From NCBI RefSeq assembly GCF_001457595.1, contig NZ_LN831039.1:6720001-6752000 (forward strand): a stretch of DNA of 32,000 bases, written 5' to 3'. Both the position numbers and the translations under genes were made by a program. The notes below the pieces were generated by a model. It had not been told where the DNA came from. It ran no database searches and saw only the letters and a list, made by a program, of their open reading frames with translations. Position 1 is the stretch's first letter. Every line of letters starts with the position of its first letter. Source of the stretch: Mycolicibacterium smegmatis. Lineage in GTDB: Bacteria; Actinomycetota; Actinomycetes; Mycobacteriales; Mycobacteriaceae. This document shows positions 1,765 through 27,915 of the stretch, piece after piece.

Positions 1765-1773
1765 GAGTATCTC

Positions 1774-3833: not shown

Positions 3834-3891
3834 CGCCGAACGATTTCAGGGGCCACACCCGAAACGCGGCGCGGGCATCTACGGTGCAACC

Positions 3892-7197: not shown

Positions 7198-7206
7198 CCG
7201 CTCGGC

Positions 7207-7225
7207 TTTGTCGGGATCCGACAAA
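7207..7225 (+). terminator. Stem-loop 10 nt after the Rv1733c-like stop (candidate intrinsic terminator or RNA element)
   Basis: tttgtcgg-gat-ccgacaaa: a perfect 8-bp stem with a 3-nt loop, followed by ttctgc, which is only a weak U-tract. Confidence 0.3.
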
Positions 7226-7323
7226 TTCTGCTGGTCGGTTTTCGTCAATTCACGGCGTGACCGGCCGACATTGTCTGCAAGCTCGAGGCAGGCCCAGGGG
7301 GTGGGCCTGAAGGGAGGGACCAC

Positions 7324-12705: not shown

Positions 12706-12934
12706 TCCCGTCGTCGGTGCGCAGGTACGCCCGCCGCGCGGTGGGCCACCTCAGACCCTCGACGTCGGTGTAGAAGTGCAGGTACTGGCTGACGCCGAAG
12801 CTGCCCGCGATGTCCACGCGGTAGTCGTGGCGGCGTAGCAGGCGGGGTGTACTTGTTCCTTCATGGACGCGGTGTACACGTCCAGGCCGACGGTTGTCCA
12901 TCGCGGAGATGCGCGTGAGGCTGCTCGCTTCCAT
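12626..12934 (-). CDS. Small hypothetical protein (about 63-102 aa, start uncertain)
   Basis: This is the 3'-terminal part of track ORF 12626..14167. I counted third-position G+C above 90% over codons LLRRHDYRVDIAGSFGVSQYLHFYTDVEGLRWPTARRAYLRTDDGIIHRDRLLVSLDFSEF. The overlapping tail of the plus-strand gene has poor GC3. Candidate starts are ATG 12934, ATG 12901, or the in-frame GTG of the RVD codons. I recognise no family. Confidence 0.55.
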   Translation of the reverse strand: MEASSLTRISAMDNRRPGRVHRVHEGTSTPRLLRRHDYRVDIAGSFGVSQYLHFYTDVEGLRWPTARRAYLRTDDGIIHRDRLLVSLDFSEFRLSTAEDSSA

Positions 12935-12946
12935 AGGCTTCGTGTC

Positions 12947-14299: not shown

Positions 14300-14318
14300 A
14301 AATCACCAGGAGCTCACC

Positions 14319-15512
14319 ATGACCCTCACCGCACCCACGAAGAAGTCCACCTACGCCCCGCTCGAGCTGTTCGACACCGACCGCCTGCTCGACCAGGACG
14401 AGCGCGACATCGCCGCAACCGTGCGACAGTTCGTCGACACCCGGCTGAAGCCCAACATCGAGGGCTGGTTCGAATCGGCCACTCTCCCACGCGAACTCGC
14501 TAAGGAGTTCGGCAATCTCGGTGTGCTGGGCATGCACCTGCAGGGTTACGGCTGCGCGGGCACCAACGCCGTGAGCTACGGCCTGGCCTGCATGGAACTC
14601 GAGGCAGGCGACAGCGGCTTCCGCAGCTTCGTGTCAGTGCAGGGTTCGCTGTCGATGTTCTCGATCTACCGCTACGGGTCCGAAGAGCAGAAGAACGAGT
14701 GGCTGCCCCGCCTTGCCGCGGGCGACGCCGTCGGCTGCTTCGGTCTGACCGAACCCGACTTCGGCTCCAACCCTGCCGGTATGCGCACCCGTGCGCGCCG
14801 CGACGGCAGCGACTGGATCCTCAACGGCACCAAGATGTGGATCACCAACGGCAACCTGGCTGACGTCGCCACGGTGTGGGCGCAGACCGACGACGGCATC
14901 CGCGGCTTCCTGGTTCCCACCGACACACCGGGATTCACCGCCAACGCGATCCACCGCAAGCTCTCGCTGCGCGCCTCGGTGACCTCCGAACTGGTGCTCG
15001 ACAACGTGCGCCTGCCCGCGTCGGCCCAGCTGCCGCTGGCCGAGGGCCTCTCGGCTCCGCTGTCGTGCCTCAACGAGGCCCGGTTCGGCATCGTGTTCGG
15101 CGCGCTGGGCGCCGCACGCGACAGCCTGGAGACCACGATCGCCTACACGCAGTCACGCGAGGTGTTCGACAAGCCGCTGTCGAATTACCAGCTGACGCAG
15201 GAGAAGCTGGCCAACATGACCGTCGAGCTGGGCAAGGGCATGCTGCTGGCCATCCACCTGGGCCGCATCAAGGACGCCGAGGGTGTGCGCCCCGAGCAGA
15301 TCAGCCTGGGCAAGCTCAACAATGTCCGCGAGGCCATCGCGATCGCCCGCGAGTGCCGGACCCTGTTGGGCGGCAGCGGGATCACGCTCGAGTACTCGCC
15401 GCTGCGTCACGCCAACAACCTGGAGTCGGTGCTCACCTACGAGGGCACCTCCGAGATGCATCTGCTGTCCATCGGCAAGGCGCTCACCGGAAAGGCGGCG
15501 TTCCGCGCATGA
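14319..15512 (+). CDS. gcdH: Glutaryl-CoA dehydrogenase
   Basis: AGGAG lies 6 nt upstream of ATG 14319. Near-colinear similarity to GCDH as I recall it: GVLGMHLQGYGCAG..VSYGL...ELE..DSGFRSF.SVQ.SL...IY.YGSEEQ...LP.LA.G...GCFGLTEP..GS.P..M.T.A......LNG.K.WITN...AD..VWA; LSLRAS.T...LDNV..P; YEGT..MH.L..G.A.TG..AF. Confidence 0.92.
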   Translation: MTLTAPTKKSTYAPLELFDTDRLLDQDERDIAATVRQFVDTRLKPNIEGWFESATLPRELAKEFGNLGVLGMHLQGYGCAGTNAVSYGLACMELEAGDSGFRSFVSVQGSLSMFSIYRYGSEEQKNEWLPRLAAGDAVGCFGLTEPDFGSNPAGMRTRARRDGSDWILNGTKMWITNGNLADVATVWAQTDDGIRGFLVPTDTPGFTANAIHRKLSLRASVTSELVLDNVRLPASAQLPLAEGLSAPLSCLNEARFGIVFGALGAARDSLETTIAYTQSREVFDKPLSNYQLTQEKLANMTVELGKGMLLAIHLGRIKDAEGVRPEQISLGKLNNVREAIAIARECRTLLGGSGITLEYSPLRHANNLESVLTYEGTSEMHLLSIGKALTGKAAFRA

Positions 15513-16972
15513 CCCCGGTGACCATCAACCACCTTGTTGCGGGCGAGTGGGTGGCCGGTGCGGGCGACGTCGTCGTCAGCGTCAACCCGGCCCACCCGGG
15601 CGACATCGTGGCCGAGGGACACAACGCGACCACCGCGCAGGTCGACACCGCGGTCGCGGCCGCCGCCGAGGCGTTCCGTGCATGGGCGGCCACCCCGACG
15701 CACCAGCGTGGTGCGGTGCTGCTGGCCGCCGCGCAGATCGTCGACCGCAACGCCCAGGCCTGGGGTCTGGAACTGGCCACCGAAGAGGGCAAGACCAAGG
15801 CCGAGGGCATCGGTGAGGTCAAGCGCGCCGCACAGATCCTGCGGTACTACGGCAACGAGGGCGACCGGCAGGCAGGCGAGATCTTCTCGTCACCCCGTGC
15901 CGGCGAACAGATCCTGGTGACCCGCAAGCCACTCGGTGTGGTCGGCGTCATCACCCCGTTCAACTTCCCCATCGCCATTCCGGCGTGGAAGATCGCGCCT
16001 GCCCTGGTGTACGGCAACACCGTGGTGTGGAAGCCCGCGAGCACCGTTCCGGTGCTGGCGATCCGCTTCGCGCAGGCACTCACCGAGGCCGGTCTGCCCG
16101 CGGGTGCGCTGAATCTGGTGATCGGTGACTCCGAGACCGGAACCGCGATCGTCGACCATCCCCGCATCGACGGTCTGACGTTCACCGGATCCACCGCGGT
16201 GGGCCGTCGTCTCGCGTCCGTGGCCGCGACGTGCGGCATCCCGATGCAGGCCGAGATGGGCGGCAAGAACGCCGCCGTGGTGCTCGACGACGCCGACCTG
16301 GACGTGGCCGTCGAACAGGTGATGCTGGGTGCGTTCCGGTCGACCGGCCAGAAGTGCACCGCCACATCCCGTTTGATCGTCACCGACGGCATCGCCGACA
16401 AGTTCACCGAGGCACTGGTCGAACGGGCCCGCGCACTGCGGGTCGGCGACCCCACCGACGACGCCACCGAGATGGGTCCGGTGATCACCGACGCGTCCCG
16501 CGCGTCGATCCTGGCCGGGATCGACACTGCCGTCGCACAGGGCGCCACGGTGCTCGCCGGTGGGCGGCCCTACACCGAAGGCCCGCTCGCCGAGGGGTAC
16601 TTCATCGCCCCGACCGTGCTGGAACTCGACGGTTCCCCGGCCAAGGTGTGGAGCGAGGAACTGTTCGGACCGGTGCTGGCGGTCCGCCGCGCGGCCGACG
16701 CCGACGAGGCGTTCGAGCTCGCCAACGACAGCGAGTTCGGCCTGTCCGCGGCGATTTTCACGCAGGATGTGACCCGGGTGCTGCAGGCCATGGAGCAGAT
16801 CGACGTCGGTGTGCTGCACGTCAACTCCGAGTCCGCCGGCGCCGATCCGCATGTGCCGTTCGGTGGCGACAAGAAGAGCGGTCTGGGCCCCAAGGAACAG
16901 GGGGCCGCGGCACGGGATTTCTTCACCCACACCACCACCGTGTACCTGCGGGGCGGGCGGCCGGGCGTATGA
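15509..16972 (+). CDS. NAD(P)-dependent aldehyde dehydrogenase (candidate glutarate-semialdehyde or gamma-glutamyl-aminoaldehyde dehydrogenase)
   Basis: ATG 15509 overlaps the gcdH stop (ATGA). ALDH motifs VITPFNFP, WKPAS, FTGST.VG, EMGGKN and catalytic Cys GQKCTATSR. 487 aa. Confidence 0.9.
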   Translation: MTPVTINHLVAGEWVAGAGDVVVSVNPAHPGDIVAEGHNATTAQVDTAVAAAAEAFRAWAATPTHQRGAVLLAAAQIVDRNAQAWGLELATEEGKTKAEGIGEVKRAAQILRYYGNEGDRQAGEIFSSPRAGEQILVTRKPLGVVGVITPFNFPIAIPAWKIAPALVYGNTVVWKPASTVPVLAIRFAQALTEAGLPAGALNLVIGDSETGTAIVDHPRIDGLTFTGSTAVGRRLASVAATCGIPMQAEMGGKNAAVVLDDADLDVAVEQVMLGAFRSTGQKCTATSRLIVTDGIADKFTEALVERARALRVGDPTDDATEMGPVITDASRASILAGIDTAVAQGATVLAGGRPYTEGPLAEGYFIAPTVLELDGSPAKVWSEELFGPVLAVRRAADADEAFELANDSEFGLSAAIFTQDVTRVLQAMEQIDVGVLHVNSESAGADPHVPFGGDKKSGLGPKEQGAAARDFFTHTTTVYLRGGRPGV

Positions 16973-18072
16973 GCGCGGCCGCACTCGAGGGCGTCGTCGT
17001 CGCGGACTTCAGCCGCGTGTTGGCCGGGCCGTACGCGACGATGATGCTCGCGGACTTCGGCGCCGAGGTCATCAAGATCGAGCGGCCGGGCACCGGGGAC
17101 GACACCCGACAGTGGGGCCCTCCGTACGACTCGACCGGCGTGGCAACGTATTTCAACTCGGTCAACCGCAACAAACGCTCGGTCGCACTGGACCTGGGCA
17201 GCACGGAAGGACGCGAGCAGGCGCGTGAGCTGATCCGCCGCGCCGACATCGTGGTCGAGAACTTCCGACCGGGCACGATGGAGAAACTCGGCCTCGGCTA
17301 CGACGACGTCCGCGCGATCCGCCCCGACGTCATCTACTGCTCGATCACGGGATTCGGCCACGGCGGCGGGGCCGCCCTGCCGGGCTACGACCTGCTGGTG
17401 CAGGCCGTCGGCGGTCTCATGAGCGTCACCGGCACCGAACCGGGCGATCCCACCAAAGCCGGTGTGGCACTGGTGGATGTGCTGGCCGGTATGCATGCGC
17501 TCAGCGGCATCCTGGTCGCCCTGGCGCACCGCGACCGCACGGGCGAGGGCCAGCGGGTCGACACCAACCTGTTCTCGGTGCTGCTGTCGTCGATGGTCAA
17601 CCAGGCGTCGGGTTATCTGGGCGCCGGTGTGGTGCCGGGCATCATGGGCAACCGGCATCCGAGCATCACGCCGTACCAGACCTTCGACACCGCCGACCGG
17701 CCCATCGCGATCGCGGTGGGCAACGACAAGCAGTTCCGGGCGTTCGCCGCGGTGATCGGCAGTCCCGACCTCGCCGACGACCCGCGGTTCTCGACCAACC
17801 CGCAGCGGGTGGCCCACCGGGACGTGCTGTGTCCCTTGATCGAGGCCGCGCTCAAGGCCAAGGGCGCCGACCACTGGTATCACGAACTGACCGCGGTCGG
17901 GGTGCCCGCGGGACCCATCAACGACCTGTCGGAGGCGTTCGCGTTCGCCGAGGAACTTGGCATCGAGGCCGTGGTGCAGATGCCCGACGGTCCGACTCCG
18001 CAGGTCGCCAACCCGATCACGCTGTCGGCGACCCCGGTGACCTACCGCAACAGCCCGCCTCCGCTCAGCTGA
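16969..18072 (+). CDS. Family III (CaiB/BaiF) CoA-transferase (candidate glutarate CoA-transferase)
   Basis: ATG 16969 overlaps the ALDH stop (ATGA). N-terminal LEGVVVADFSRVLAGPYATMMLADFGAEVIKIERPGTGDDTRQWGPP is typical of family III CoA-transferases. 367 aa. Confidence 0.9.
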   Translation: MSAAALEGVVVADFSRVLAGPYATMMLADFGAEVIKIERPGTGDDTRQWGPPYDSTGVATYFNSVNRNKRSVALDLGSTEGREQARELIRRADIVVENFRPGTMEKLGLGYDDVRAIRPDVIYCSITGFGHGGGAALPGYDLLVQAVGGLMSVTGTEPGDPTKAGVALVDVLAGMHALSGILVALAHRDRTGEGQRVDTNLFSVLLSSMVNQASGYLGAGVVPGIMGNRHPSITPYQTFDTADRPIAIAVGNDKQFRAFAAVIGSPDLADDPRFSTNPQRVAHRDVLCPLIEAALKAKGADHWYHELTAVGVPAGPINDLSEAFAFAEELGIEAVVQMPDGPTPQVANPITLSATPVTYRNSPPPLS

Positions 18073-19576
18073 GGCCGGGCCGTTCGCGGCTCACCAGCAG
18101 TTGCCACGCGCGGATCGCGAGCCACAGCTGGGCACGGGTGTCGGCCGTGCCGAGGTCGTCGGCGAGCAGATCACTGATGCGCCGCATCCGGTTTCGCATG
18201 GTGTGGCGATGGATCTGGAGTTCACTCGCGGCGGCCTCGAGCTGACCGTTGTGGCGCAGGAACGCCGTCAGCGCGTCGATCAGTTCGTCGCCTCCTGCGA
18301 GCAGAGGCTCGATGGGTTGGGCGAGCACACGCAGTTCCGCGGTGCTGCGCCCGCCAAGCAACGTGCCGAACACCTTGACCTCGGTGAACTCGGTGATGTT
18401 GCGCCGGGAGTTGGAATGCGCTGCGATCCTGGCCTGCTCGGCCCCGACGACCGCATCGGCGAGGCGCACCGGCTGGCTGGCCCCGCCTCTGACGGTGCGC
18501 CCGGTGACACGTCCGAACTCCTCGACCGCGGCATAGACGCGCCTGCGCCGGGCTGCGTGCACGATGATCGCGAACTCGTCGCCCGTGCTGGTCATCAGGT
18601 ACGACCCGGCCGGTGCGAGGCGCTGCCCCAGATCGTCCTGCGCCGTCAACAGCGGCGTGAACCCAGTGAGCAGCAGGACGACCACCTCGTCGTCGGGCTG
18701 AAAACCCAAGTACCGCAACACCGCACTGTCGGTGGTGCCGGTGCCCGAGAGGATGTCGCGGGTGACGGCGGAGCGCAGCCGGTCCTCGGCGTCGACCACC
18801 CGCGCGGGTTTCTCCAGTTCGATCGAGATGAGCGATACGGCGTGCGCGACGAGCAACCGCTGCGAGTTGGACATCGGCTGCTCGGTGCGCACCGCGAGAT
18901 GCCCGCGCACGGGCTGTGCGGCGCGCAGGGTCTGCACGGTGACATAACCATCCGCGTCGGCGACCACGCCGGCCTGCGCACGCGCACCGGCGCGCCGTGA
19001 CGCCTCCAGCACCTCGACCAATCGCTGGTCGGCCGCACCACGGGTGGCCAGGATGCGGCCCTCGATGTCGGCGACGACGACTGTCGCGGAGAGGCATTCG
19101 GCGAGAGCGTTGACGACCGCGGGGATGCCGCCGCGCAGTGTGGCCCGCGCCAGCACCTGCTGTTGATCGACCATGCGCTGCACGGCGCTCAGTTCGTCGG
19201 CCTTGACGGCGTCGATCACCACGCGGGCGATCGCGATGAACGGTGTCGAGGCAGGCACCTCGAGCACCGGCAGCCCCAGTTCGTCGCCTGCGGCCAGCAC
19301 GGCCGCGGGCACCTCCTGCAGCGTGGTGCCGGTGTCGACGGCGAGCGCCGCGATGCCCGCCGCCGACAGCCGTGCGACGTAGTCGCGTTGTTCGCCGGCT
19401 CCGGCACCGATGTTGATGCCGGTGGTCATGACGAGCTCGCCACCCGCCAGATACGGTGTGGGATCGCGCAACTCGTTGGCGTGGGCCCAGGCGATCTCCC
19501 GGTCCGCGCCCTGCGCGCCGGCCAGCAGCGACAGGCCGAGCGACTCGACCTGTGCCAGCCCGCGCGCGGTGATCAC
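18065..19576 (-). CDS. PucR-family transcriptional regulator
   Basis: N-terminal PurC-like domain (LGLSLLAGAQGADREIAWAHANELRDPTPYLAGGELVMTTG). C-terminal PucR HTH (LEAAASELQIHRHTMRNRMRRISDLL). I chose the start at GTG 19576 because it overlaps the upstream stop (GTGA) and gives the canonical N-terminus. The track start at 19693 would overlap the upstream gene by 121 nt. Confidence 0.82.
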   Translation of the reverse strand: MITARGLAQVESLGLSLLAGAQGADREIAWAHANELRDPTPYLAGGELVMTTGINIGAGAGEQRDYVARLSAAGIAALAVDTGTTLQEVPAAVLAAGDELGLPVLEVPASTPFIAIARVVIDAVKADELSAVQRMVDQQQVLARATLRGGIPAVVNALAECLSATVVVADIEGRILATRGAADQRLVEVLEASRRAGARAQAGVVADADGYVTVQTLRAAQPVRGHLAVRTEQPMSNSQRLLVAHAVSLISIELEKPARVVDAEDRLRSAVTRDILSGTGTTDSAVLRYLGFQPDDEVVVLLLTGFTPLLTAQDDLGQRLAPAGSYLMTSTGDEFAIIVHAARRRRVYAAVEEFGRVTGRTVRGGASQPVRLADAVVGAEQARIAAHSNSRRNITEFTEVKVFGTLLGGRSTAELRVLAQPIEPLLAGGDELIDALTAFLRHNGQLEAAASELQIHRHTMRNRMRRISDLLADDLGTADTRAQLWLAIRAWQLLVSRERPGLS

Positions 19577-20382
19577 TCCGCCGGCGCCGCCGCCAACGCC
19601 CGTGACTGGCGGGCCTGTTCGGCCGCGCCGACGAACGCGCCGAACAACCGCATCCGGTCGGCCTCGGGACCGTCGGTGTCCTCGGGATGCCACTGCACGC
19701 CCAGATAGAAGCGGTCGGGATCCTCGACGCCCTCGGTGATGCCGTCGAGTGCGCGGGCCGCCACGACCAGGCCGCGGCCCAGGCGGTCGACAGCCTGGTG
19801 GTGGCCGTTGCGGCCGATCACGCGGTCGGTGCCCAGGATCGACCGCAGCCGGGTACCGGGCACGACGTCGATCGGTTCGTCGACGAACACCGGTTCACCG
19901 GGTCCGCCGTGGTGCAGCTTGTAGTCGACGATGTCACCTATGAGCGACCCGCCGCGCGCGACGTTGAGCAACTGCGATCCCCGGCAGATCCCAAAGATCG
20001 GGCGACCGGCGGCCTCGGCCGCGGCGATCACGGCGAACGCGTCGCGGTCGGCACGCAGATCGACACCGTAGGAGTTCGGGATGGGTTCGCAGGAGCCGTA
20101 ACACGACCCGTCGACATCGCCGCCGCCCAGCAGCAGCAGACCGTCGAAATCCGCTGCGGCCTCGGGGTTCTCCAGCGGTTGCGTGGTGTCCCAGAGCTCG
20201 AACGACGCGCCGAGTGAGACCAGGGTGGCAAGCGCGGTGCGGGTGAACCGCCTGACCAGTCCGGCGTCGTGCTCGTTGATGCCCGGAAAGTTCAACGAGG
20301 CCACCACGCACACGTGCGCACGCACCGACGTGGGCTCGCACGGGTTCGGGATCACGTCTTCACGACGTACCCGAATGGTCAT
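19573..20382 (-). CDS. Class-I glutamine amidotransferase-like gamma-glutamyl hydrolase (peptidase C26, PuuD-like), paralog 2
   Basis: 269 aa. Nucleophile elbow IFGICRGSQLLNVARGG, NGHHQAV, and WHPE near the C-terminus. ATG 20382 overlaps the paralog-1 stop (ATGA). Confidence 0.85.
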   Translation of the reverse strand: MTIRVRREDVIPNPCEPTSVRAHVCVVASLNFPGINEHDAGLVRRFTRTALATLVSLGASFELWDTTQPLENPEAAADFDGLLLLGGGDVDGSCYGSCEPIPNSYGVDLRADRDAFAVIAAAEAAGRPIFGICRGSQLLNVARGGSLIGDIVDYKLHHGGPGEPVFVDEPIDVVPGTRLRSILGTDRVIGRNGHHQAVDRLGRGLVVAARALDGITEGVEDPDRFYLGVQWHPEDTDGPEADRMRLFGAFVGAAEQARQSRALAAAPAE

Positions 20383-21092
20383 CGCGATTCCTTTCTCTTG
20401 CGGGCCCGGTCCACCAGGTCGGCGAACAGGGCCGCGTCGCTGTCAGCTGTGGCGTGCCGGTCCTCGGGATGCCACTGCACGGCAAGGATATCGGCCCGCC
20501 GGTGCTCGACGGCCTCGATCACCCCGTCGGCGGCGACGGCCGTCACCGTGAGATCTGCGCCCAGGCGGTCGATGGCCTGGTGGTGGTATGACGACACGTC
20601 GACGGTCTCGGTGCCCACGATCGAGTGCAGCCGCGACCCGGTGACCACCCACACCGGGTGGATGGCGTTGTGGTGCGCCGTGGTGGTCTCGGTGATGTGC
20701 TGTACCAGGGTGCCGCCGAGCGCCACGTTGAGCACCTGCAATCCGCGGCAGATCGCCAGGGTCGGCAGGTCCAGCTCGAGCACCGCGCGGGTCAGGCCCA
20801 GGTCGAAGTCGTCCTGGAACGCGACGGTGTCCTTGGTCTGCGGCGCCGGGTCGGCGCCGTACCGGCACGGTTCGACGTCGGCGCCGCCGGGCAGAAGTGC
20901 GCCGTCGAACGCCGCGAGGCGTTGCGGCAGTTCGGCGAGCGGGTCGGCGGCGGGCCCGTGCAGGATGACGGGCTCGCCGCCGGCGGCCCACACCGCCTCG
21001 CAGATGGCCTCGGCGGCCAGCGTCGCCGAGAACCGCAGGATCGGCACGCTCTCGGCCCGCCGGCCCGGGACCGCGATCAGCGGGCGGTTCAC
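20379..21092 (-). CDS. Class-I glutamine amidotransferase-like gamma-glutamyl hydrolase (peptidase C26, PuuD-like), paralog 1
   Basis: GTG 21092 overlaps the upstream stop (GTGA). LAICRGLQVLNVALGG, SYHHQAI and VQWHPE. 237 aa. Confidence 0.85.
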   Translation of the reverse strand: MNRPLIAVPGRRAESVPILRFSATLAAEAICEAVWAAGGEPVILHGPAADPLAELPQRLAAFDGALLPGGADVEPCRYGADPAPQTKDTVAFQDDFDLGLTRAVLELDLPTLAICRGLQVLNVALGGTLVQHITETTTAHHNAIHPVWVVTGSRLHSIVGTETVDVSSYHHQAIDRLGADLTVTAVAADGVIEAVEHRRADILAVQWHPEDRHATADSDAALFADLVDRARKRKESR

Positions 21093-21808
21093 TCGCCGAA
21101 GGGGTAGTCGAGGGTCGGCAGCCATTCCTTCCAGACGTCACGCAGACGTCCCGAGGAGATCAGACGTTCGAGCGCACCGTCGATCTCGGCGAGGGTGTCC
21201 GGCCGGTCCTTGGACACCGCGATGCCCCACTTGTTGGCGGTCTTGACCGTGAAGGCGAGCTCGTAGTCGGGGTGCGTCGCACCCAGCGGCACGAAGACCA
21301 CGTCGTCGTCGACCACGGCGTCGACCTCCTCGGCCAGCAGCGCCGCCAGCATGTCGGCGTACACGTCGTCCGAACCGGCGCCGAACGGCACCGGGATGGC
21401 GCCCGTGAAGGTCTCCGCGAGCTTCATGTTGGTGCTGTTCTCGATCGCGGCGACCTTGCGGCCCACGAGGTCCTCGGGGCTCTTGATCCCAGTGCCCCGG
21501 CGGATCAGCACGCCCTCGTGGAAGATCGCGTAGGGCCTGGTGAAGTCCACCTGCGCCTGCCGTTCGGGGGTGATGCCCTGGCCGCACAACACGGCGTCGG
21601 CGTCACCGCGCTGCACGGCGGGGATCATGTCGACCCAGGGCACACGCACCCATTCGACGGACCTGCCGAGTTCGGCGCCGAGCGCCTCGGCCACGCCGGG
21701 CTCGTATCCCGTGCGTCCGTTCTCGGGGGTCCACAGCGAGAACAGCGGCGGGGCCTCGGCGTCGAGGCAGGCGAGCCGCAAGGGGGCACGGGTGGTCGTC
21801 TCGGTCAC
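21089..21808 (-). CDS. Family-3 solute-binding-protein-like (periplasmic-binding-protein type II fold) protein without a signal peptide
   Basis: GTG 21808 overlaps the GS-like stop (GTGA). 239 aa. LRLACLDAEAPPLFSLW...GYEPGVAEALGAELGRSVEWVRVPWVDMIPAVQRGDADAVLCGQGITPERQAQVDFTRPY matches the amino-acid ABC SBP (SBP_bac_3) core. The N-terminus VTETTTRAPLR has no hydrophobic h-region and no lipobox. Confidence 0.72.
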   Translation of the reverse strand: MTETTTRAPLRLACLDAEAPPLFSLWTPENGRTGYEPGVAEALGAELGRSVEWVRVPWVDMIPAVQRGDADAVLCGQGITPERQAQVDFTRPYAIFHEGVLIRRGTGIKSPEDLVGRKVAAIENSTNMKLAETFTGAIPVPFGAGSDDVYADMLAALLAEEVDAVVDDDVVFVPLGATHPDYELAFTVKTANKWGIAVSKDRPDTLAEIDGALERLISSGRLRDVWKEWLPTLDYPFGE

Positions 21809-23190
21809 GGTGCGTCGCTCCAATACATTTCGCGTTCCCAGTCGGTCACATATCCACAGAACCTGGCCCACTCGTCGGCGTGGAAGTCGATGAGCAGCGA
21901 GGAGAGGTCCGGTCCGAGCGCCTGCGTGAGCACCTCGTCGGCACGGAACGCCTCGATGGCCTCGCCGAGCGTCAACGGCAGTGCGGGGAACCGGGTGTCG
22001 ACGAGCGCGTCGTAGGACGAGCCCTGGGTCGGCGCACCCGGATCGATCTCGTTCTTCATGCCGTCCTCGCAGGCCGCGAGGATCACGGCGTGCGACAGGT
22101 AGGGGTTGACCGCGGCGTCGGGCAGCTTGTACTCGAGGCGGCCGACAGCCGACAACCGCACGGTGCAGGTCTTGTTGTCCAGGCCCCAGTTGATGCGTGA
22201 CGGCGCGAATTGTCCTGCGTCCCAGTACCGTTTGTACGAGTTCACCGTGGAGCCGTTGATCAGCATGGCGCCGGCCGAGTGCGCGAGCAGGCCGCCGAGC
22301 GCGTGCTGGCCGAGTTCGGACAGGTGCAACTCGGTGACGCCGGGTTCGGCGAGCACGTTGACACCGTCGCGCCACAGGCTGAAGTTGTGGTGGCAACCGT
22401 TCCCCATCATTCCGGTGGCGGGCTTGGGCATGAAGCTCGCCTGGATGCCGAGCTCGCGTGCCACCTGCTTGCAGATCTGCCGGTAGGTGGTCAGGCGGTC
22501 GGCGGTGAGATCGGCCCGGTCGTACATGAAGTTCAGTTCGACCTGGAACTCGTCCTCGTAGTCGCCCTCGATCATGTCGAGGCCGAGCGCCTGGGCGTAC
22601 TCGACGACCTTCTTGACGATCGGACGGTTCCGCTCGAGATGCTCGATGTGATAGGCGGGGCTTGACCCGGGGCGGAACTGCGCTTCCAAACCCTCACCCT
22701 GCCAGGTCATCTCGGGCTCGCAGCCGGTGCGCAGCTCCAGACCCGTGCGGTCGGTGAAACCGGCGTGCAGGCGCCGCAGCAGCCCGCGGGAGTCACAGGC
22801 GAATTCGGCGCCTGCACGTTCGGCCAGGTGATCGGGTTCGTACAACCGGCAGAACACTCGCGCGAAACTGGTGTCCCACGGCAGCACCGCGAAGGTCTCC
22901 AGATCCGGGATCGCGGTGTACTCAGGGGCGTTCACGCCACCGGCGAGCAGCACACCCTCGCGGGTGCCCTGCAGGTTGGCCACCGCGGTCTGGTGCTGCT
23001 GCACACCCCTGACGGCGAGGCGTTCGAAGTGCTTGGCGGGAGCGACCTTGCCCACGACCCGGCCCGTGATGGTGACGGCCTGGAAGTAGACGAACTCGAC
23101 TCCCCGTTCGGCGATGGTCTCGAGTACGGCAGCGAGGTCGGGGCTCGTGGCGTTGGCCTGCCGGTGCGCGTCAAGGGGTGTGATGGTCAT
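21805..23190 (-). CDS. Glutamine-synthetase-like ligase (candidate gamma-glutamyl-amine/amide synthetase, PuuA/IpuC/GlnA3-4-like)
   Basis: 461 aa. GS catalytic-domain block ASFMPKPATGMMGNGCHHNFSLW, and an N-terminal GS beta-grasp (VEFVYFQAVTITGRVVGKVAP). GAGGA SD inside the end of the ferredoxin gene. Confidence 0.9.
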   Translation of the reverse strand: MTITPLDAHRQANATSPDLAAVLETIAERGVEFVYFQAVTITGRVVGKVAPAKHFERLAVRGVQQHQTAVANLQGTREGVLLAGGVNAPEYTAIPDLETFAVLPWDTSFARVFCRLYEPDHLAERAGAEFACDSRGLLRRLHAGFTDRTGLELRTGCEPEMTWQGEGLEAQFRPGSSPAYHIEHLERNRPIVKKVVEYAQALGLDMIEGDYEDEFQVELNFMYDRADLTADRLTTYRQICKQVARELGIQASFMPKPATGMMGNGCHHNFSLWRDGVNVLAEPGVTELHLSELGQHALGGLLAHSAGAMLINGSTVNSYKRYWDAGQFAPSRINWGLDNKTCTVRLSAVGRLEYKLPDAAVNPYLSHAVILAACEDGMKNEIDPGAPTQGSSYDALVDTRFPALPLTLGEAIEAFRADEVLTQALGPDLSSLLIDFHADEWARFCGYVTDWEREMYWSDAP

Positions 23191-23195
23191 GGTGA

Positions 23196-23384
23196 TCAGT
23201 CCTCGATCGTGATGGCCTGGAGCGGGCAGACGTCAGCGGCCTCCTCGACCGCGAACCGCTCGGATTCCGAAGGCGTGCTGATGTATTCGAGGACGCCGTC
23301 GTCGGTCATCGAGAACACCGAGGGGGCGGCGATGACGCACTGGCCGTGGTCCTGACAGCGGTTGAGATCAACGGAGACTCGCAT
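23196..23384 (-). CDS. Small 3Fe-4S-type ferredoxin (P450 redox partner)
   Basis: 62 aa from ATG 23384, with AGGA 6 nt upstream. The track TTG 23390 abuts the SD directly. Cluster ligands CQDHGQC ... CP (DLNRCQDHGQCV...ADVCPLQAI) are typical of actinobacterial P450-linked ferredoxins. Confidence 0.85.
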   Translation of the reverse strand: MRVSVDLNRCQDHGQCVIAAPSVFSMTDDGVLEYISTPSESERFAVEEAADVCPLQAITIED

Positions 23385-23413
23385 GATCAATCCTTTGGGT
23401 TGGGCTGTTGGAG

Positions 23414-23439
23414 CGTTCAGGGGGCTCGTTCAGGGGGCC
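23414..23439. repeat. 13-nt tandem duplication spanning the P450 stop codon
   Basis: cgttcagggggct (23414-23426) is directly followed by cgttcagggggcc (23427-23439), 12 of 13 identical. The real P450 stop is the tca at 23430-23432. Confidence 0.9.
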
Positions 23440-24632
23440 GGGGTGAAACCGATCGGCAGTGTGTTGGGTCCGGTGTTGCCCGAGTCGGGCAGCCAAGTGG
23501 CGCCGGGCAACTCATGCGGGTCGCGCAGGCGGCGGGCCAGCAGCGGCAGCGCCTCGCTCATGTCCGAGCGGGCCACGAAGTGGCCGAGGCAGTGGTGGAC
23601 CCCACCGCCGAAACCGAAGTGCGGCTTGCGTTCTGCGGTGATGTCGAAGCCCGGCTCGAACACGCGCGGGTCGGTGCCTGCCGACTCGCTGTACAGGTGC
23701 ACGGTGGTGCCGGCCTTCAGCGTCACGCCTTCGTACTCGAAGTCCTCGACCACCTCGCGGGTCACCCACCGCACGGTGGGGTTGACGCGCATGACCTCCT
23801 CGACGGCCTTGCCGCCGAGATCGGGACGCTCGCCGAGCAGACGCCACTGGTCCGGATGCTTCATGAACGTCTGCATCGCCAGGCCCAGCTGGTTGCGGGT
23901 GGTGTCGAAGCCCCCGAATATCAGCAGCAGGATGGCATCTCGCAGCTCTTTGTCGCTGAGCCTGCCGTCGTCCGGACGCGACGCATTGACCAGCGTGGTC
24001 ATGAAGTCGTCGCGCGGGTTGGCCCGGCGGTCCGCGATCAACTCGTCGCTGTACTCGTACAACCGCTGCACGGCGGCCTCGATCTTGGGCAGGTCCTCGC
24101 GCAGCGTGACGCCCAGGGCCAGGCCGATGGTCGCGGACTCGGTCGAGATGACCTTCCACTCCTCTTCGGGCAGGCCGAGCATGATCGCGATGACCCGCGC
24201 CGCGTACGGTTCGGCGAACTCGCTGACGAACTCGCAACGATCGGGTTCGGCGAAGTTGTCGATGAGTTCGTTTGCCAGCGCCTGGAATCGGGGCACCAGC
24301 GACCCGATCAGCTTGGGCGAGAACGCGGGGTTCATGAGCCGGCGCAGCCGGTGGTGTTCCTCGCCTTCCTTGTTGAGGATCCAGCTGGCGAACCACTCGG
24401 CGAACGGGCCCTCCGTGACGCCGTTGTGCGCAGGCCACGCGGCGCTGCCCTGGCGCAGTTTGGGGTGCTTGATCAGGCGGTTGACCTGCTCGTAGCGCAA
24501 TACAGCCAGCCCGTAGGGCGTCGTTGCGTACCAGCTCTTCTCGCGGGCTTCGTGGACCTCGTCCGAGGTGATCGAGAATGCCGGGTCCGTGACATCAAAA
24601 CTGGGGACTGAGTCGAGGGTGGTCGACGACAT
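23430..24632 (-). CDS. Cytochrome P450 monooxygenase (possibly the piperidine/pyrrolidine/morpholine-type mycobacterial P450 class)
   Basis: Heme-thiolate loop FGFGGGVHHCLG, ExxR (EEVMR) and I-helix-like LLLIFGGFDTT. ATG 24632 has GGAGG 8 nt upstream. The track TTG 24647 lies inside that SD. 400 aa. Confidence 0.92.
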   Translation of the reverse strand: MSSTTLDSVPSFDVTDPAFSITSDEVHEAREKSWYATTPYGLAVLRYEQVNRLIKHPKLRQGSAAWPAHNGVTEGPFAEWFASWILNKEGEEHHRLRRLMNPAFSPKLIGSLVPRFQALANELIDNFAEPDRCEFVSEFAEPYAARVIAIMLGLPEEEWKVISTESATIGLALGVTLREDLPKIEAAVQRLYEYSDELIADRRANPRDDFMTTLVNASRPDDGRLSDKELRDAILLLIFGGFDTTRNQLGLAMQTFMKHPDQWRLLGERPDLGGKAVEEVMRVNPTVRWVTREVVEDFEYEGVTLKAGTTVHLYSESAGTDPRVFEPGFDITAERKPHFGFGGGVHHCLGHFVARSDMSEALPLLARRLRDPHELPGATWLPDSGNTGPNTLPIGFTPAP

Positions 24633-24782
24633 CAGTGCTACCTCCAAGGGTTCGCGACCGAACGGTCACTAAATACTCTAGAAGTAGATTGTTAAAGTCA
24701 ATAGGTCGACAACTGTCAATTTTCGGGGTTTTTGTTAAGGCTCCATTACGCCTGTTAGAACTGCGTTACTCACCGGTAGAAA
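24633..24782 (-). promoter_or_regulatory. AT-rich control region upstream of the P450 operon (promoter plus probable operator repeats)
   Basis: G+C is visibly far below the flanks. Minus-strand reading: aTTGACAgttgtcgacctaTTGACTttaacaatctacttcTAGAGTatttag. That gives two TTGAC boxes 19 nt apart and a TANNNT -10 candidate, TAGAGT. Plus-strand TGTTA(A/G) boxes lie at 24690, 24733 and 24753. CAATAGG at 24699-24705 is shared with the 26361 inverted repeat. Confidence 0.4.
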
Positions 24783-25499
24783 TCATGCGATTGCAACGAC
24801 CCAGCCGGTCCCCAGCGGCATTTCGGCCACCTCACGGAACTCGTCGGGACCCGGATTCGCGCTCTGCTCCGGCATCTGCGGCAGCCTCGACCCGACGAAC
24901 CACCGCGGCGTGTTCGCGGCCAGAACGCGCCGCTCGGTATTGACCACGACGGCGTCGCGCGCGGTCTGACGCAGGACCGCGAGCAGGTTGCGCTCGACCT
25001 CGCCGACCACCAGGTCGGCACCCGCGATGCCCAGGAACACCTCGTCGGCAACCACGGGGACCGTGGCCGTGATGGTGTACATGTCCGAACCGCTGTAGTC
25101 GACATACGGGCCGTAGGCCACGCGGGCCTGGCCACGCTGCGCCAGCTGGTAGAAGTCCATCTGCAGGTAGTCGTACACGTCCACGCTGGTCGGGTCGAAG
25201 TTGAGCCGTAGCCGGGCCACCCGGTCGTCGCCGCGACGCTGCCACCAGGCCAGATAGCGCTCCTTGCCCTCGACCACGAACGGTGCGGCGATGAACCCCA
25301 TGCCCCATACGTCGTGGCGGCCCTGCAACACGTCGGCGAGCCGGCGCTGCAGCCCACTGAAGTGCGCCTCGGTCAGCGGCGCGCGCGGCGGCCTGATGGC
25401 GAGCACGTCCTCACGGATGCTCTCGAGCAGCCCGAACAGCGGCTCGAGCGCGTCCGAGGCTTCCTTGGCCAAGAGCTCGGCCAGCTGATCTCCACTCAT
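24783..25499 (-). CDS. Stand-alone soluble Cache/PDC-like sensor-domain protein (no output domain, no TM)
   Basis: 238 aa. The pattern ...MGFIAAPF...YLAWWQR......LNFDP.S.DVYDYLQMDFY......VAYGPYVDY.G...YTIT.TVPV....FLGIAGADL is what I associate with actinobacterial cache-domain-containing proteins. ATG 25499 overlaps the GntR stop (ATGA). The family call was made by eye only. Confidence 0.6.
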   Translation of the reverse strand: MSGDQLAELLAKEASDALEPLFGLLESIREDVLAIRPPRAPLTEAHFSGLQRRLADVLQGRHDVWGMGFIAAPFVVEGKERYLAWWQRRGDDRVARLRLNFDPTSVDVYDYLQMDFYQLAQRGQARVAYGPYVDYSGSDMYTITATVPVVADEVFLGIAGADLVVGEVERNLLAVLRQTARDAVVVNTERRVLAANTPRWFVGSRLPQMPEQSANPGPDEFREVAEMPLGTGWVVAIA

Positions 25500-26233
25500 C
25501 GGCCGGCCTCCTTCGTCGTGAGATCCAGGTTGATCTGGGTCAGCCGCGCGAGCTGCCCCATCACATGAGCCTCGGCCAACTGGCGGGCCTCCTGTGCGTT
25601 TTCGGCAGCAATGGCAGCAGAGATCGCGTGCTTCTCCTCCACATAGGCGGCCACATCGATGGGTGGCCCGATCGGTAACCAGATCAGGCCCGACACCTCG
25701 GCCTGCAGGTTCGCCTCGCGGCGCGCCAGGCGAGCCGACTGGGCGGCGACCGCGACCTGGATGTGGAACCGGCTGTCGGCCCGGATCCGGTCACGCAGCG
25801 ACGTCGCGGTGTCGAGTTGATCGGTCAGCGCGAACAACCGCCGCACGGTCGACGGCGCGGCCCGCTCGGCGGCCAATCGGGCGGCCTGACCGGCGATCGC
25901 GGTGTGCTCGTCGAACAGATCTCGCAGGTCAGAGGCGCTCATGGCGGCAAGCCGGGCGGTCAGCTTCTCGACCGGCGGCCCTGCGGGCCTGCGGACGAAC
26001 GACCCACCGCTGCGCCCGCGGCGGGTCTCCACCAGCTCGAGTTCACGCAGCGTCGCGAGCGCCTCGCGCACGGTCATCGGGGCGACGCCGAACTGCGCGG
26101 CCAGGTCGACCTCCACCGGCAGGCGTTCACCGTCATCCAGCAGACCCAGATGGATGGCCTCGGTGATGCGCTGCACGATCTCGTCGGCGCGACCCACGGG
26201 AGCCTCGGGCGCGACGAGCGGCGACAGCGACAC
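25496..26233 (-). CDS. GntR-family (FadR/FCD subfamily) transcriptional regulator
   Basis: wHTH ADEIVQRITEAIHLGLLDDGERLPVEVDLAAQFGVAPMTVREALATLRELELVETRRGRSGGSFV, followed by an all-helical FCD-like domain. GTG 26233 is preceded by GGAAGGAGA. The track start 26398 adds a low-complexity, poor-GC3 extension. Confidence 0.85.
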   Translation of the reverse strand: MSLSPLVAPEAPVGRADEIVQRITEAIHLGLLDDGERLPVEVDLAAQFGVAPMTVREALATLRELELVETRRGRSGGSFVRRPAGPPVEKLTARLAAMSASDLRDLFDEHTAIAGQAARLAAERAAPSTVRRLFALTDQLDTATSLRDRIRADSRFHIQVAVAAQSARLARREANLQAEVSGLIWLPIGPPIDVAAYVEEKHAISAAIAAENAQEARQLAEAHVMGQLARLTQINLDLTTKEAGR

Positions 26234-26343
26234 CGGCGGTTCTCCTTCCGAGATACAGGTGGGCGATCCCGGCGGGGACCGATTCGCCGAAGTGGCGTCT
26301 GGAGATGTCGGCAATCTACCCGATTTGCGACGAATTCTGCCGT

Positions 26344-26377
26344 TCCTATTGCCGGATAAACAATAGGACTGTAGTTT
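26344..26377 (+). promoter_or_regulatory. Inverted repeat overlapping a candidate promoter of the APC permease operon
   Basis: TCCTATTG (26344-26351), a 9-nt spacer, then CAATAGGA (26361-26368): a perfect 8-bp inverted repeat. Candidate -35 TTGCCG (26349-26354), a 17-nt spacer, then -10 TAGTTT (26372-26377). Confidence 0.4.
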
Positions 26378-26418
26378 TTCGCTCACTTGGCGCAGCACCT
26401 CCAGCAGAAAGCAGGCTG

Positions 26419-27915
26419 ATGTCTATTTCCAAGTCCCCTGTCAGTCCCTCGGAAGGGGCTCACGCGTCCGATTCGGACGCCGCGCATCTGGACAAGCTCG
26501 GCTACAAATCCGAGTTCAAGCGGGATATGAGCCCCTGGGCCAACTTCTCGCTCGGTTTCACCTACCTGTCCCCGGTCGTCGGTATCTACACACTGTTCGC
26601 CTACGCGCTGGCCACCGGCGGCCCGCCGATGATCTGGAGCCTCGTGATCGTCGGCGTCGGCCAGCTGCTGGTCGCGTTGGTGTTCAGCGAGGTCGTGGCC
26701 CAGTTCCCGGTGGCGGGCGGGGTGTACCCGTGGGCACGCCGGCTGTGGGGACGCAAATACGCCTGGATGACCGGGTGGGTGTACCTCGTGGCCCTGCTGG
26801 TGACGATCGCGTCGGTGACCTACGGTTCCGGCCCGTTCATCGCCGCCACGTTCGGCATCGAGGCCACCGTGAACAACACCATCGCGTTCGCGCTGGTGTT
26901 GCTCGCCCTGGCCACGATCATCAACTTCATGGGCACGAAAGTGCTTGCGAAAGCAGCGATCATCGGTTTCACCGCCGAGATCATCGGTGCCCTGGTGGTC
27001 GGTGGCTGGCTGCTGATCGCGCACCGCGAGCACAACCTCGGCGTCATCTTCGACAGCTTCGGCGCAGGCGGCGACGGCAGCTACCTGTGGGCCTTCGCGG
27101 CCGCGGCGCTGATCGGCGTCTACCAGTACTACGGTTTCGAGGCCTGCGGCGATGTCGCCGAGGAAGTGCGCGATCCGGGTCGCCTGATCCCCAAGGCCAT
27201 GCGCCGCACCATCTACATCGGCGGTGCCGCAGCCACTTTCGTGTGCCTGTCGCTGGTTCTCGCGGTGGCCGACATTCCCGCGGTGATCGCCGGCGAGGAC
27301 GTCGACCCGGTCAGCACCGTGCTCACCGAGGCGTTCGGTCCGATCGGCTCCAAGGTCATCCTGGTGATCGTGCTGCTGTCGTTCTTGTCCTGCGCGATGA
27401 GCCTGCAGGCCGCCGCGAGCCGCCTGGCCTACTCGTACGGCCGTGACGGCATGATCATGGGCAGCAGCCTGCTCAAGAAGTTCTCGGCTTCTCGCCACGT
27501 CCCGCCTTACGCGCTGATCCTGGCCGCCATCGTGCCCGCCGTGATCATCATCGGGTCGAAGGTCTCCACCGACGCGATCACCAAGATCATCAGCTTCGCC
27601 GCCTTCGGGATCTACCTGGGCTTCCAGATGGTCGTGCTGGCCGCGCTGCGTGCCCGCCTCAGGGGCTGGGTGCCGTCGGGCAAGTACACGCTGGGCAGGT
27701 GGGGTGTGCCGGTCAACATCGCGGCGCTGGTCTACGGCATCACCGCCATGGTGAACATGGCGTGGCCCCGCACTCCCGACGCACCCTGGTTCGACAACTG
27801 GATCGTCGCGCTGTCCGCGGCCGTGGTCGTGGTGACCGGCCTGGTCTACATGGCCGTCCACCCCCTGCACGACCGCAGCACGGCGCCCTACTCCGACGCC
27901 ATTCCGACAAAGTAG
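26419..27915 (+). CDS. APC-superfamily amino acid/amine permease
   Basis: ATG 26419, 498 aa, about 12 hydrophobic helices. N-terminal LGYKSEFKRDMSPWANFSLGFTYLSPVVG and internal FEACGDVAEEVRDP are typical of APC permeases. Confidence 0.9.
   Translation: MSISKSPVSPSEGAHASDSDAAHLDKLGYKSEFKRDMSPWANFSLGFTYLSPVVGIYTLFAYALATGGPPMIWSLVIVGVGQLLVALVFSEVVAQFPVAGGVYPWARRLWGRKYAWMTGWVYLVALLVTIASVTYGSGPFIAATFGIEATVNNTIAFALVLLALATIINFMGTKVLAKAAIIGFTAEIIGALVVGGWLLIAHREHNLGVIFDSFGAGGDGSYLWAFAAAALIGVYQYYGFEACGDVAEEVRDPGRLIPKAMRRTIYIGGAAATFVCLSLVLAVADIPAVIAGEDVDPVSTVLTEAFGPIGSKVILVIVLLSFLSCAMSLQAAASRLAYSYGRDGMIMGSSLLKKFSASRHVPPYALILAAIVPAVIIIGSKVSTDAITKIISFAAFGIYLGFQMVVLAALRARLRGWVPSGKYTLGRWGVPVNIAALVYGITAMVNMAWPRTPDAPWFDNWIVALSAAVVVVTGLVYMAVHPLHDRSTAPYSDAIPTK

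Follow-up and report, generated by a model that had tools for sequence, protein, structure and literature searches.

A leaderless SBP_bac_3 protein in the probable cyclic-amine operon of Mycolicibacterium smegmatis: a predicted cytoplasmic offshoot of the amino-acid-binding fold and a possible carbinolamide-processing enzyme

Mycolicibacterium smegmatis uses piperidine and pyrrolidine with the help of pipA, a CYP151 cytochrome P450, and the GntR regulator pipR, according to work of 1999 (Poupin) cited in PMC9477822; pipR is also cited in PMC2018728. In a quite different setting, cyclohexadienyl dehydratase (CDT) is a substrate-binding protein (SBP) that has turned into a lyase with the amino-acid motif kept, and AncCDT-1 is a non-catalytic protein (10.1101/157495). 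Here, we consider an SBP-like gene in 32,000 nucleotides of the M. smegmatis genome (assembly GCF_001457595.1, contig NZ_LN831039.1, positions 6,720,001–6,752,000 of the forward strand; the whole of this stretch is called the window). The 239-residue product belongs, on the strength of the sequence comparisons described below, to a signal-less branch of the polar-amino-acid SBP fold that is monophyletic. We regard it as a cytoplasmic SBP-fold protein recruited into catabolism, with a realistic chance of being a new enzyme.

The gene in question is

21089–21808, minus strand: signal-less SBP_bac_3 protein of 239 aa, with an SBP_bac_3 Pfam match and a leaderless N-terminus

The open reading frame translates to MTETTTRAPLRLACLD... 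and matches Pfam SBP_bac_3 (PF00497) over residues 15–231 with E = 3.2e-25 and a score of 88.8 bits against a cut-off of 26.4; its Pfam matches are to type II families only. The cut-offs of the NCBIfam transporter-SBP equivalogs (GlnH, ArtJ, ArtI, the cystine SBP and the LAO subfamily were compared) all lie far above the scores obtained, the best being 81.9 bits against 256 for TIGR01096, with 44.7 bits against 303 for GlnH. The GTG start at 21808 overlaps the TGA of a glutamine synthetase (GS)-like gene (GTGA, 21805–21808) and has a GGAG about 9–12 nt on its 5' side, while at the other end the TGA overlaps a GTG of the Peptidase_C26 (C26) hydrolase gene that follows (GTGA, 21089–21092). From the gene order this is probably MSMEG_6692.

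Databases name the protein 'ABC transporter substrate-binding protein' or 'glutamine-binding periplasmic protein', and these names, together with the Pfam match, speak for an ordinary exported SBP of an ATP-binding cassette (ABC) transporter. The N-terminus argues otherwise. Its maximum Kyte–Doolittle hydropathy (11-residue window over the first 45 residues) is 0.83, compared with 2.17–2.88 for the seven SBP_bac_3 paralogues of the M. smegmatis genome, all of which by eye have a hydrophobic leader followed by a cysteine, consistent with a lipoprotein signal peptide. A signal peptide, a lipobox and a Tat motif were looked for by hydropathy and inspection and none was seen. The frame is open on the 5' side of the GTG, solely as an overlap with the GS-like gene, and the residues encoded there are not signal-like. 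In the orthologous loci L009, L011, L037 and L049 a leader is impossible because an in-frame stop lies 1–6 codons 5' of the conserved LRLACLD. Two apparent signals were rejected: 'LAC' at residues 12–14 as a lipobox, which has no h-region, has an arginine at −3 and is modelled in strand β1, and a Tat motif read from an upstream TTG start ('MERRT'), which has no hydrophobic core, is not conserved and is preceded by stops in orthologues.

The transporter that such a protein would serve is likewise missing from the places searched. The sole ABC genes of the window (106–2817, plus strand) lie on the opposite strand, some 19 kb off, and encode a fused permease together with a TOBE-type ATPase. No glnP-like (polar-amino-acid) permease was found in 116 family loci (1.17 Mb), of which just four contain a glnQ-like ABC ATPase. 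An earlier note on this stretch, made from the sequence alone, had recognized the SBP_bac_3 core, predicted a cytoplasmic product from the missing n-region, h-region and lipobox and remarked on the lack of a cognate ABC permease or ATPase; all of this holds, and the region upstream of the start, where the note allowed that a signal peptide might yet lie, yielded none. We therefore predict from sequence that the protein is cytoplasmic, and it is not a transporter component. The exported-SBP reading is extremely improbable and in silico effectively refuted. All members of the clade described next are leaderless proteins of 232–262 residues, and it is almost certain that the transporter label misnames the clade as a whole.

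When 1.84 billion representatives were scanned in full with HMMER, 42 proteins reached E ≤ 1e-30. About 25 are full-length clusters of 232–262 residues and 33–66% identity, all of which start a few residues before strand β1; lower in the ranking stand multi-domain sensors and ordinary SBPs. The 28 labelled members all fall in one clade of a maximum-likelihood tree, with support of 96/98 and a stem 0.91 substitutions per site long; SBPs with hydrophobic leaders lie outside it, as does Escherichia coli GlnH. Two sequences at first taken for non-members fall inside the clade, and both are leaderless. The strong support and the long stem are consistent with neofunctionalization. The named members belong to Mycolicibacterium, Nocardioides, Arthrobacter, Leucobacter and Rhodococcus (including plasmid pR1CP1) and to many filamentous cyanobacteria, such as Leptolyngbya, Nodosilinea and Oscillatoria; others lie on marine metagenome contigs of 44% GC. 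The distribution is patchy: with E ≤ 1e-90 as the limit, four of the 401 sampled Actinomycetota genomes contain a member, and the matches that follow, at E ≥ 1e-47, are ordinary SBPs. Three metagenome proteins in which GS or C26 pieces are joined to SBP pieces (P0135, P0141 and P0193) were considered as Rosetta-stone fusions and rejected, since they contain partial domains only; they are probably frameshift, assembly or gene-calling artefacts across overlapping high-GC gene junctions.

The gene lies in a tightly packed minus-strand operon that runs GntR/FCD, Cache/PDC-like, P450, ferredoxin, GS-like, SBP-like, C26, C26 and PucR. The features of the operon and its surroundings are

25496–26398, minus strand: GntR/FCD regulator, PipR-like (Pfam), kept beside the P450 operon in orthologues

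24783–25499, minus strand: stand-alone Cache/PDC-like protein (MCP-like_PDC_1), coupled to the GntR gene

23430–24647, minus strand: cytochrome P450 of the CYP151/PipA type, MSMEG_6695 (Pfam p450)

23196–23390, minus strand: small ferredoxin of 64 aa between the P450 and the ligase, an open reading frame whose position is kept in orthologous loci

21805–23190, minus strand: GS-like γ-glutamyl-amine ligase of 461 aa, MSMEG_6693-type (Gln-synt_C, E = 2e-70), adjoining the SBP-like gene in orthologues

20379–21125, minus strand: first PuuD-like C26 γ-glutamyl hydrolase (Peptidase_C26, E = 3e-54), 3' of the SBP-like gene in orthologues

19573–20382, minus strand: second C26 γ-glutamyl hydrolase, a paralogue of the first (Peptidase_C26, E = 4e-37)

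18065–19693, minus strand: PucR-family regulator (PucR and HTH_30 domains), present in a subset of orthologous loci only

26305–27915, plus strand: APC-family amino-acid/amine permease (AA_permease_2), divergent from the GntR gene and conserved

27961–29343, plus strand: aldehyde dehydrogenase of the module (Aldedh)

12863–18072, plus strand: converging lower-pathway operon of a class III aminotransferase, an acyl-CoA dehydrogenase, an aldehyde dehydrogenase and a type III CoA-transferase (Pfam), syntenic in orthologues

The window thus encodes a full γ-glutamylation set (Gln-synt_C, p450 with ferredoxin, Aldedh and two Peptidase_C26), which is syntenic in orthologues, and by this gene content the SBP-like gene is part of an amine-catabolic system of the Puu/Ipu/Pip type. 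The ligase scores below the cut-offs for GlnA, type III GS and PuuA. The P450 is 57–66% identical to those beside GS-like genes in Paracoccus TOH and Streptomyces clavuligerus. An open reading frame homologous to the ferredoxin is annotated as a ferredoxin on Rhodococcus pR1CP1, and the Cache/PDC-like homologue on plasmid pGKT2 is annotated as 'cache domain-containing protein'. The first C26 hydrolase starts either at ATG 21125 or at GTG 21092, the latter being the one that overlaps the SBP-like stop; in some loci (L131, L135 and L146) the aldehyde dehydrogenase gene lies between the two C26 genes. The converging operon would convert an ω-amino acid to a dicarboxyl-CoA. Judged from this context, the operon can very likely be equated with the pipA/pipR cluster already described for cyclic amines (piperidine/pyrrolidine) in M. 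smegmatis, an identity that the earlier note did not recognize. The ligase and the P450 appear to correspond to MSMEG_6693 and MSMEG_6695, to go by product names and approximate genome position (PMC7816997, PMC3662644).

The neighbourhood of the gene was compared across 115 loci, which collapse to 33 clusters at 70% identity; the counts rest on tblastn searches in which a limited set of queries was run against contigs that differ in length, and related loci are not independent. In 46 genome loci spanning Mycolicibacterium (the majority), Nocardioides, Arthrobacter and Leucobacter, at 52–93% identity, the order GS–SBP–C26–C26 is essentially invariant. The earlier note had made conservation in orthologous clusters a touchstone, and here it is found in essentially every locus of this set. 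The P450–ferredoxin pair lies upstream, sometimes with an extra gene of about 1.2 kb that is probably a ferredoxin reductase. Over the whole family a GS-like gene lies within 300 bp of the SBP-like gene in 18 of the 33 clusters, and in 22 of them there is an oxygenase no more than 3.5 kb away, either a P450 of the CYP151 type or a PhyH dioxygenase, many of the other contigs being too short to judge. Further arrangements are

Rhodococcus: aldehyde dehydrogenase-GS-SBP, facing aminotransferase-aldehyde dehydrogenase-C26-ferredoxin-reductase

L136: GS-SBP-P450

L153: P450-ferredoxin-SBP

L144: reductase-SBP

L181: GntR-PhyH-GS-SBP

Cyanobacteria: PhyH divergent from SBP-GS, with a copper amine oxidase in L118 and L120

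L118, L121 and L122: Amt, an amino-acid permease and an acyl-CoA-dehydrogenase-like or DUF1989/GCV_T gene, in varying combinations

Marine contigs L155, L157–L161 and L187: PhyH-SBP with a 4 nt overlap

C26 hydrolases were not found in the PhyH-type loci, and neither ligase, hydrolase nor aldehyde dehydrogenase was detected in the examined flanks of the marine PhyH-SBP contigs.

This survey bears on two further explanations. An accessory or regulatory subunit of the GS-like ligase, one that binds glutamate or the product and tunes specificity or activity, would account for the way in which the gene directly adjoins the GS-like gene, on either side, in both Actinomycetota and cyanobacteria, and for the overlap of start and stop codons in the window. 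We nevertheless consider it unlikely. Some members stand beside an oxygenase with no ligase nearby (L153, L144, L155–L161), GS-like paralogues of 42–46% identity in ten sampled genomes have no SBP partner and the same is true of P450-linked GS-like genes that are 63% (S. clavuligerus), 71% (Gordonia) and 43% (Paracoccus) identical. That the ligase is always partnered by the SBP-like protein is ruled out by the unpartnered paralogues of the ten genomes and the three plasmids.

A cytoplasmic ligand sensor that signals to PucR or to GntR/PipR in the fashion of AmiC and AmiR is suggested by the layout of the window, where the operon ends in the PucR gene and is preceded by GntR and the Cache-like protein; cytoplasmic sensors with a periplasmic-binding-protein (PBP) fold do exist, AmiC being an example. 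The orthologues make this role very unlikely, however. No PucR gene was detected within about 8 kb downstream in many of them (for example L009, L011, L012, L014, L016, L018, L023 and L050–L052). There is also no PucR domain among the Pfam families of four annotated cyanobacterial loci or of the marine locus L159, these being the loci beyond Actinomycetota that the PucR screen covered. The regulators that are conserved are the GntR and Cache pair, in which a sensor domain is already supplied, and the invariant neighbours of the SBP-like gene are enzymes rather than regulators.

The AlphaFold model (pLDDT 93.4, pTM 0.87) has a two-lobed type II fold in a closed conformation. Foldseek superposes it best on liganded amino-acid SBPs, with TM scores of 0.80–0.84 and E of about 1e-22, among them the glutamate complex 5EYF (0.84) and AncQR (4ZV1; 0.80). 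Pocket residues were assigned by alignment to the E. coli glutamine-binding protein GlnBP and to AncCDT-1, not from measured distances; the GlnBP ligand contacts were taken in part from PMC7400645. In the GlnBP alignment the anchors are kept, with Arg83, Asp168, Gly76 and Asp16 at the positions of Arg75, Asp157, Gly68 and Asp10, and Thr126 stands at Gly119. Among the other pocket residues of GlnBP we take Phe13, Phe50 and His156 to be part of the ligand site. Several positions have changed: Phe13 to Ala19, Lys115 to Ile122, Thr70 to Gly78 (Gly or Ala in the family) and His156 to Asp167. Phe13 and Lys115, both at ligand-pocket positions, are replaced by alanine and isoleucine, which probably makes the distal pocket larger than that of GlnBP and less polar.

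Across the family the α-amino-acid anchors Arg83 and Asp168 are present in 115 of 115 loci, as are Glu36 and Met153. A set of family-specific residues is nearly as constant: Glu98 and Asp167 in 114 of 115, Asn127 and Ala19 in 112 and Arg32 and Pro236 in 111, the last in a conserved C-terminal tail of the form W..P..F/Y-P. Positions 58/75/76/78/122/194, on the other hand, read W/C/G/G/I/W where the partner is a P450 and M/F/N/A/L/F in the cyanobacterial PhyH context. As far as the alignment can tell, the head-group site and the extra polar residues are constant, and the distal pocket differs according to which oxygenase is the partner. This pattern would best fit, as ligand, an α-amino acid with a variable, mostly apolar side-chain end, a description that an N5-substituted glutamine answers.

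The earlier note had pointed to PheC/CDT-type dehydratases as a comparison, and here the answer is negative. The CDT general-acid position, Glu173, is Val171 in the SBP-like protein, as in AncCDT-1, and is Val or Ala across the family, which rules out a CDT-type dehydratase on the catalytic residue. Glu98 aligns with CDT Lys100, Asn127 with Asn133 and Ile122 with Asn128, so that one of the three residues of the Lys100/Asn128/Asn133 network matches; Asp168 aligns with the CDT anchor Asp170, three residues before the general acid. Nor does CDT offer a cytoplasmic precedent, as the note had supposed, since the Pseudomonas aeruginosa enzyme is periplasmic.

With fold, pocket and neighbours in view, our preferred proposal, offered tentatively and as something short of probable, is that the SBP-like protein recognizes the glutamine-like head of γ-glutamyl-amides and catalyses the collapse, or ring opening, of a hydroxylated carbinolamide. 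The GS-like ligase would first make γ-glutamyl-piperidide or -pyrrolidide, an N5-substituted glutamine. The P450 and its ferredoxin would then hydroxylate the carbon next to the amide nitrogen to give a carbinolamide, in the cyclic-amine case an N-acyl-2-hydroxypiperidine. In the SBP-like protein Arg83 would hold the α-carboxylate and Asp168 the α-ammonium of the glutamine-like head, leaving Glu98, Asp167, Asn127 and Asp16 as putative cofactor-free acid/base catalysts, an assignment that follows the alignment. Collapse of the carbinolamide would open the ring of a cyclic amine to give a γ-glutamyl-ω-aminoaldehyde, which the aldehyde dehydrogenase would oxidize and the C26 hydrolases release. 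The corresponding step of the PhyH systems would be a dealkylation to glutamine and an aldehyde; the absence of C26 hydrolases from PhyH loci would then be explained because dealkylation gives glutamine directly.

Several points favour this proposal. The gene is linked to two unrelated oxygenase classes (P450-ferredoxin-(ferredoxin reductase)-GS-SBP, PhyH divergent from SBP-GS and ligase-free PhyH-SBP units in contigs of the L159 type), and an aldehyde dehydrogenase is part of the actinobacterial module. In the pocket the head-group anchors are invariant, the family-specific residues nearly so, and two of the latter, Glu98 and Asn127, stand where CDT has active-site residues. N-acyl carbinolamides are long-lived at neutral pH, and peptidyl-α-hydroxyglycine requires the lyase PAL. 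The type II PBP fold has, moreover, repeatedly given rise to cofactor-free lyases, namely CDT, prephenate dehydratase, MqnA and DszB.

The same pocket would serve a non-catalytic cytoplasmic binder or chaperone, which sequesters the γ-glutamyl-amide made by the ligase until the oxygenase has acted. Product inhibition would thereby be relieved, and the amide would be shielded from the two C26 hydrolases so that a futile ATP cycle is avoided. All the canonical amino-acid-binding determinants are kept and the model is that of a closed SBP. The GTGA overlaps with the ligase and hydrolase genes, which imply translational coupling, suggest matched expression, and proximity to the GS-like gene (the 18 of 33 clusters noted above) fits as well; the conserved tail with Pro236 could be a docking peptide. 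We hold this to be possible but doubtful. The two-gene PhyH-SBP units have no ligase or hydrolase in the flanks examined, two unrelated oxygenase folds make a specific hand-off complex less likely, stoichiometric buffering of a soluble intermediate is costly and the near-invariant Glu98, Asp167 and Asn127 are not needed just to hold a neutral amide. Because the oxygenases are of two unrelated types and are sometimes found without ligase or hydrolases, a role tied to the substrate or product of the oxygenase is more economical than docking to one partner. The earlier note had suggested three roles; two of them, a γ-glutamyl-amide binder or chaperone and a lyase, are viable in the light of the retained Arg/Asp anchor and of the link to ligase and oxygenase across phyla, while its third, a sensor for PucR, is disfavoured by the many loci in which PucR went undetected.

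Against the carbinolamide proposal there are a number of considerations. The retained anchors and the closed AlphaFold model are equally expected of a pure binding protein, the CDT general acid is absent (Val171) and the catalytic residues are assigned from alignment alone. The pocket is unusually acidic, which could point to a cationic ligand instead. Hydroxylation by P450 or PhyH next to the amide nitrogen is assumed by analogy with the accepted α-hydroxylation of cyclic amines by CYP151. Our literature search found no published function or mention of the gene, in keeping with the earlier note, which knew of no assigned role. Some family members are orphans (G223/L196 and L185) and one (L162) stands beside a GATase only. 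Three plasmids, finally, have a related P450 next to a GS-like gene and no SBP-like gene: Paracoccus sp. TOH p2 (P450 57% and GS-like protein 43% identical), S. clavuligerus pCLA1 (66 and 63%) and Gordonia pGKT2 (GS-like gene 71%). The SBP-like protein is therefore not chemically indispensable, because pairs of P450 and GS-like genes occur without it.

Two of these plasmids are of interest in their own right. The pGKT2 region of Gordonia sp. KTR9 (L199, 4155–11166) carries GntR, cache and P450 genes, a GS-like gene truncated at about residue 390, an FAD oxidoreductase and a second P450 of 552 aa, with no SBP-like or C26 gene detected in the region. The oxidoreductase and the 552-residue P450 we take to be probably XplB and XplA, of RDX degradation; it appears that these two genes were inserted into an operon of the pip type. 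Plasmid p2 of Paracoccus sp. TOH, a piperazine degrader (L197, 5521–13645), encodes a P450, two GS-like proteins, an aldehyde dehydrogenase and two amidotransferase-type hydrolases. A protein of 206 aa without a Pfam match (6858–7478) overlaps the start of its first ligase gene and could be a non-homologous stand-in for the SBP-like protein.

Extended to the whole clade, the carbinolamide proposal would make these proteins a second independent case of an SBP turned enzyme, acting without cofactor as a lyase or ring-opening enzyme on carbinolamides (N-acyl hemiaminals) in a three-step module with a GS-like ligase and an α-hydroxylating P450 or Fe/2-oxoglutarate PhyH oxygenase. This wider form we advance with more reserve, as a speculative possibility. 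The module would run from amine to N5-alkylglutamine, to N5-(1-hydroxyalkyl)glutamine and on to glutamine (or a γ-glutamyl-aminoaldehyde) plus an aldehyde. For the cyanobacteria, the Amt and GCV_T-type genes at the loci hint at methylamine as the substrate.

In the cyanobacterial trio of PhyH, SBP-like and GS-like genes (L118, L120–L122) the GS-like protein has 499 residues. Amt, an ammonium/methylammonium transporter, and a DUF1989–GCV_T protein are encoded in L118, L121 or L122. These clusters may represent an undescribed alkylamine (possibly methylamine) nitrogen-assimilation cluster. A sequence search of the PDB with PhyH returned remote matches only (PHYHD1, DhiD and SnoK) and no clue to the substrate.

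Some further observations concern the operon itself. The GntR/FCD and Cache/PDC-like genes (24783–26398, minus strand) meet in an overlapping ATGA junction, and the two stand beside the P450 operon in nearly all orthologous loci (L009–L053), including the inverted layout of Arthrobacter and Leucobacter; they recur at the xplR region of Gordonia pGKT2 (L199, 4155–5596). They look like a two-protein sensor–regulator pair. The ferredoxin gene ends 5 nt on the 5' side of the ligase gene with no reductase between them (23190–23196), so the reductase must be supplied from elsewhere in M. smegmatis. L009, L012, L018, L032, L042, L043, L048 and L051 have a gap of about 1.2 kb at this point, room enough for a ferredoxin reductase, and in L144 (3374–4756) such a reductase is demonstrably encoded beside the SBP. 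In strain mc2155 a GlnR peak from chromatin immunoprecipitation (ChIP) lies between MSMEG_6695, the P450 gene, and MSMEG_6697, an IS1096 transposase; differential expression was not observed (PMC3662644). The binding of GlnR is a hint that the operon is under nitrogen control. There is no transposase 5' of the P450 gene in the window (about 24633–24782), and this genome therefore differs from mc2155 at the pip promoter region. At the far end of the window, positions 106–5361 (plus strand) form a separate unit of the fused ABC permease, the TOBE-type ATPase, a type I phosphodiesterase/sulfatase-like protein and an amidase, with two LysR regulators after them; the unit is unrelated to the SBP-like gene.

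As matters stand, hundreds of database entries almost certainly mislabel the clade as a transporter SBP or a glutamine-binding periplasmic protein. The clade marks an unrecognized, conserved part of γ-glutamylation-dependent amine catabolism. The family may explain how the ring is opened in the hydroxylated N-acyl intermediate of piperidine, pyrrolidine and probably morpholine-type pollutants. Were it catalytic, it would be a second natural example, beside CDT, of evolution from binding protein to enzyme; and were the wider scheme true, filamentous cyanobacteria would have an undescribed route that takes alkylamine nitrogen straight into glutamine, a form of nitrogen scavenging. M. smegmatis is a tractable organism in which to put the proposal to a direct test.

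How, then, does the locus compare with described systems? The CYP151 clusters pipA/pipR of M. smegmatis and morABC of Mycobacterium sp. HE5/RP1 have the same GntR regulator, CYP151-type P450, ferredoxin and 'glutamine synthetase' (PMC9477822, PMC3662644, PMC7816997); this literature, as far as its available text extends, deals with the P450, the redox partners and the regulator, and neither mentions an SBP-like gene nor gives it a role. The Puu pathway of E. coli, the Ipu pathway of Pseudomonas KIE171 and Arthrobacter aurescens TC1 and the GlnA2–4 system of Streptomyces follow the same logic of ligase, oxidation of the γ-glutamyl-amide, aldehyde dehydrogenase and C26/PuuD hydrolase (PMC6776027). 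In the Ipu case, hydroxylation gives a stable alcohol and not a carbinolamide (PMC6776027). The protein table of A. aurescens TC1 contains no SBP-fold component. We know of none in the Puu, Ipu or GlnA2–4 systems as a group.

AmiC of P. aeruginosa is likewise a cytoplasmic binding-protein fold without a transporter. It is a type I (LIV-type) PBP, paired with an ANTAR antiterminator; the SBP-like protein is instead of type II (SBP_bac_3), its conserved neighbours are enzymes and the regulators nearby are not kept with the family. With CDT/PheC it shares the SBP_bac_3 fold and the amino-acid-binding motif, and AncCDT-1 is among its best sequence and structure matches. Asn127 corresponds to CDT Asn133 and Glu98 occupies the Lys100 site, but Glu173, Asn128 and Tyr22 of CDT are replaced by Val171, Ile122 and Ala19, CDT has a signal peptide and the gene context is unrelated to aromatic amino acids. 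Closest in architecture are the polar amino-acid SBPs, such as E. coli GlnBP, the glutamate-binding protein of Enterococcus faecium (5EYF) and AncQR (4ZV1), which have the same two-lobed type II fold and α-amino-acid anchor. At 22–29% identity to these proteins, and without their export signal or transporter genes, the SBP-like protein belongs to a clade set apart by its long stem, its near-invariant Glu98, Asn127 and Arg32 and its conserved C-terminal tail.

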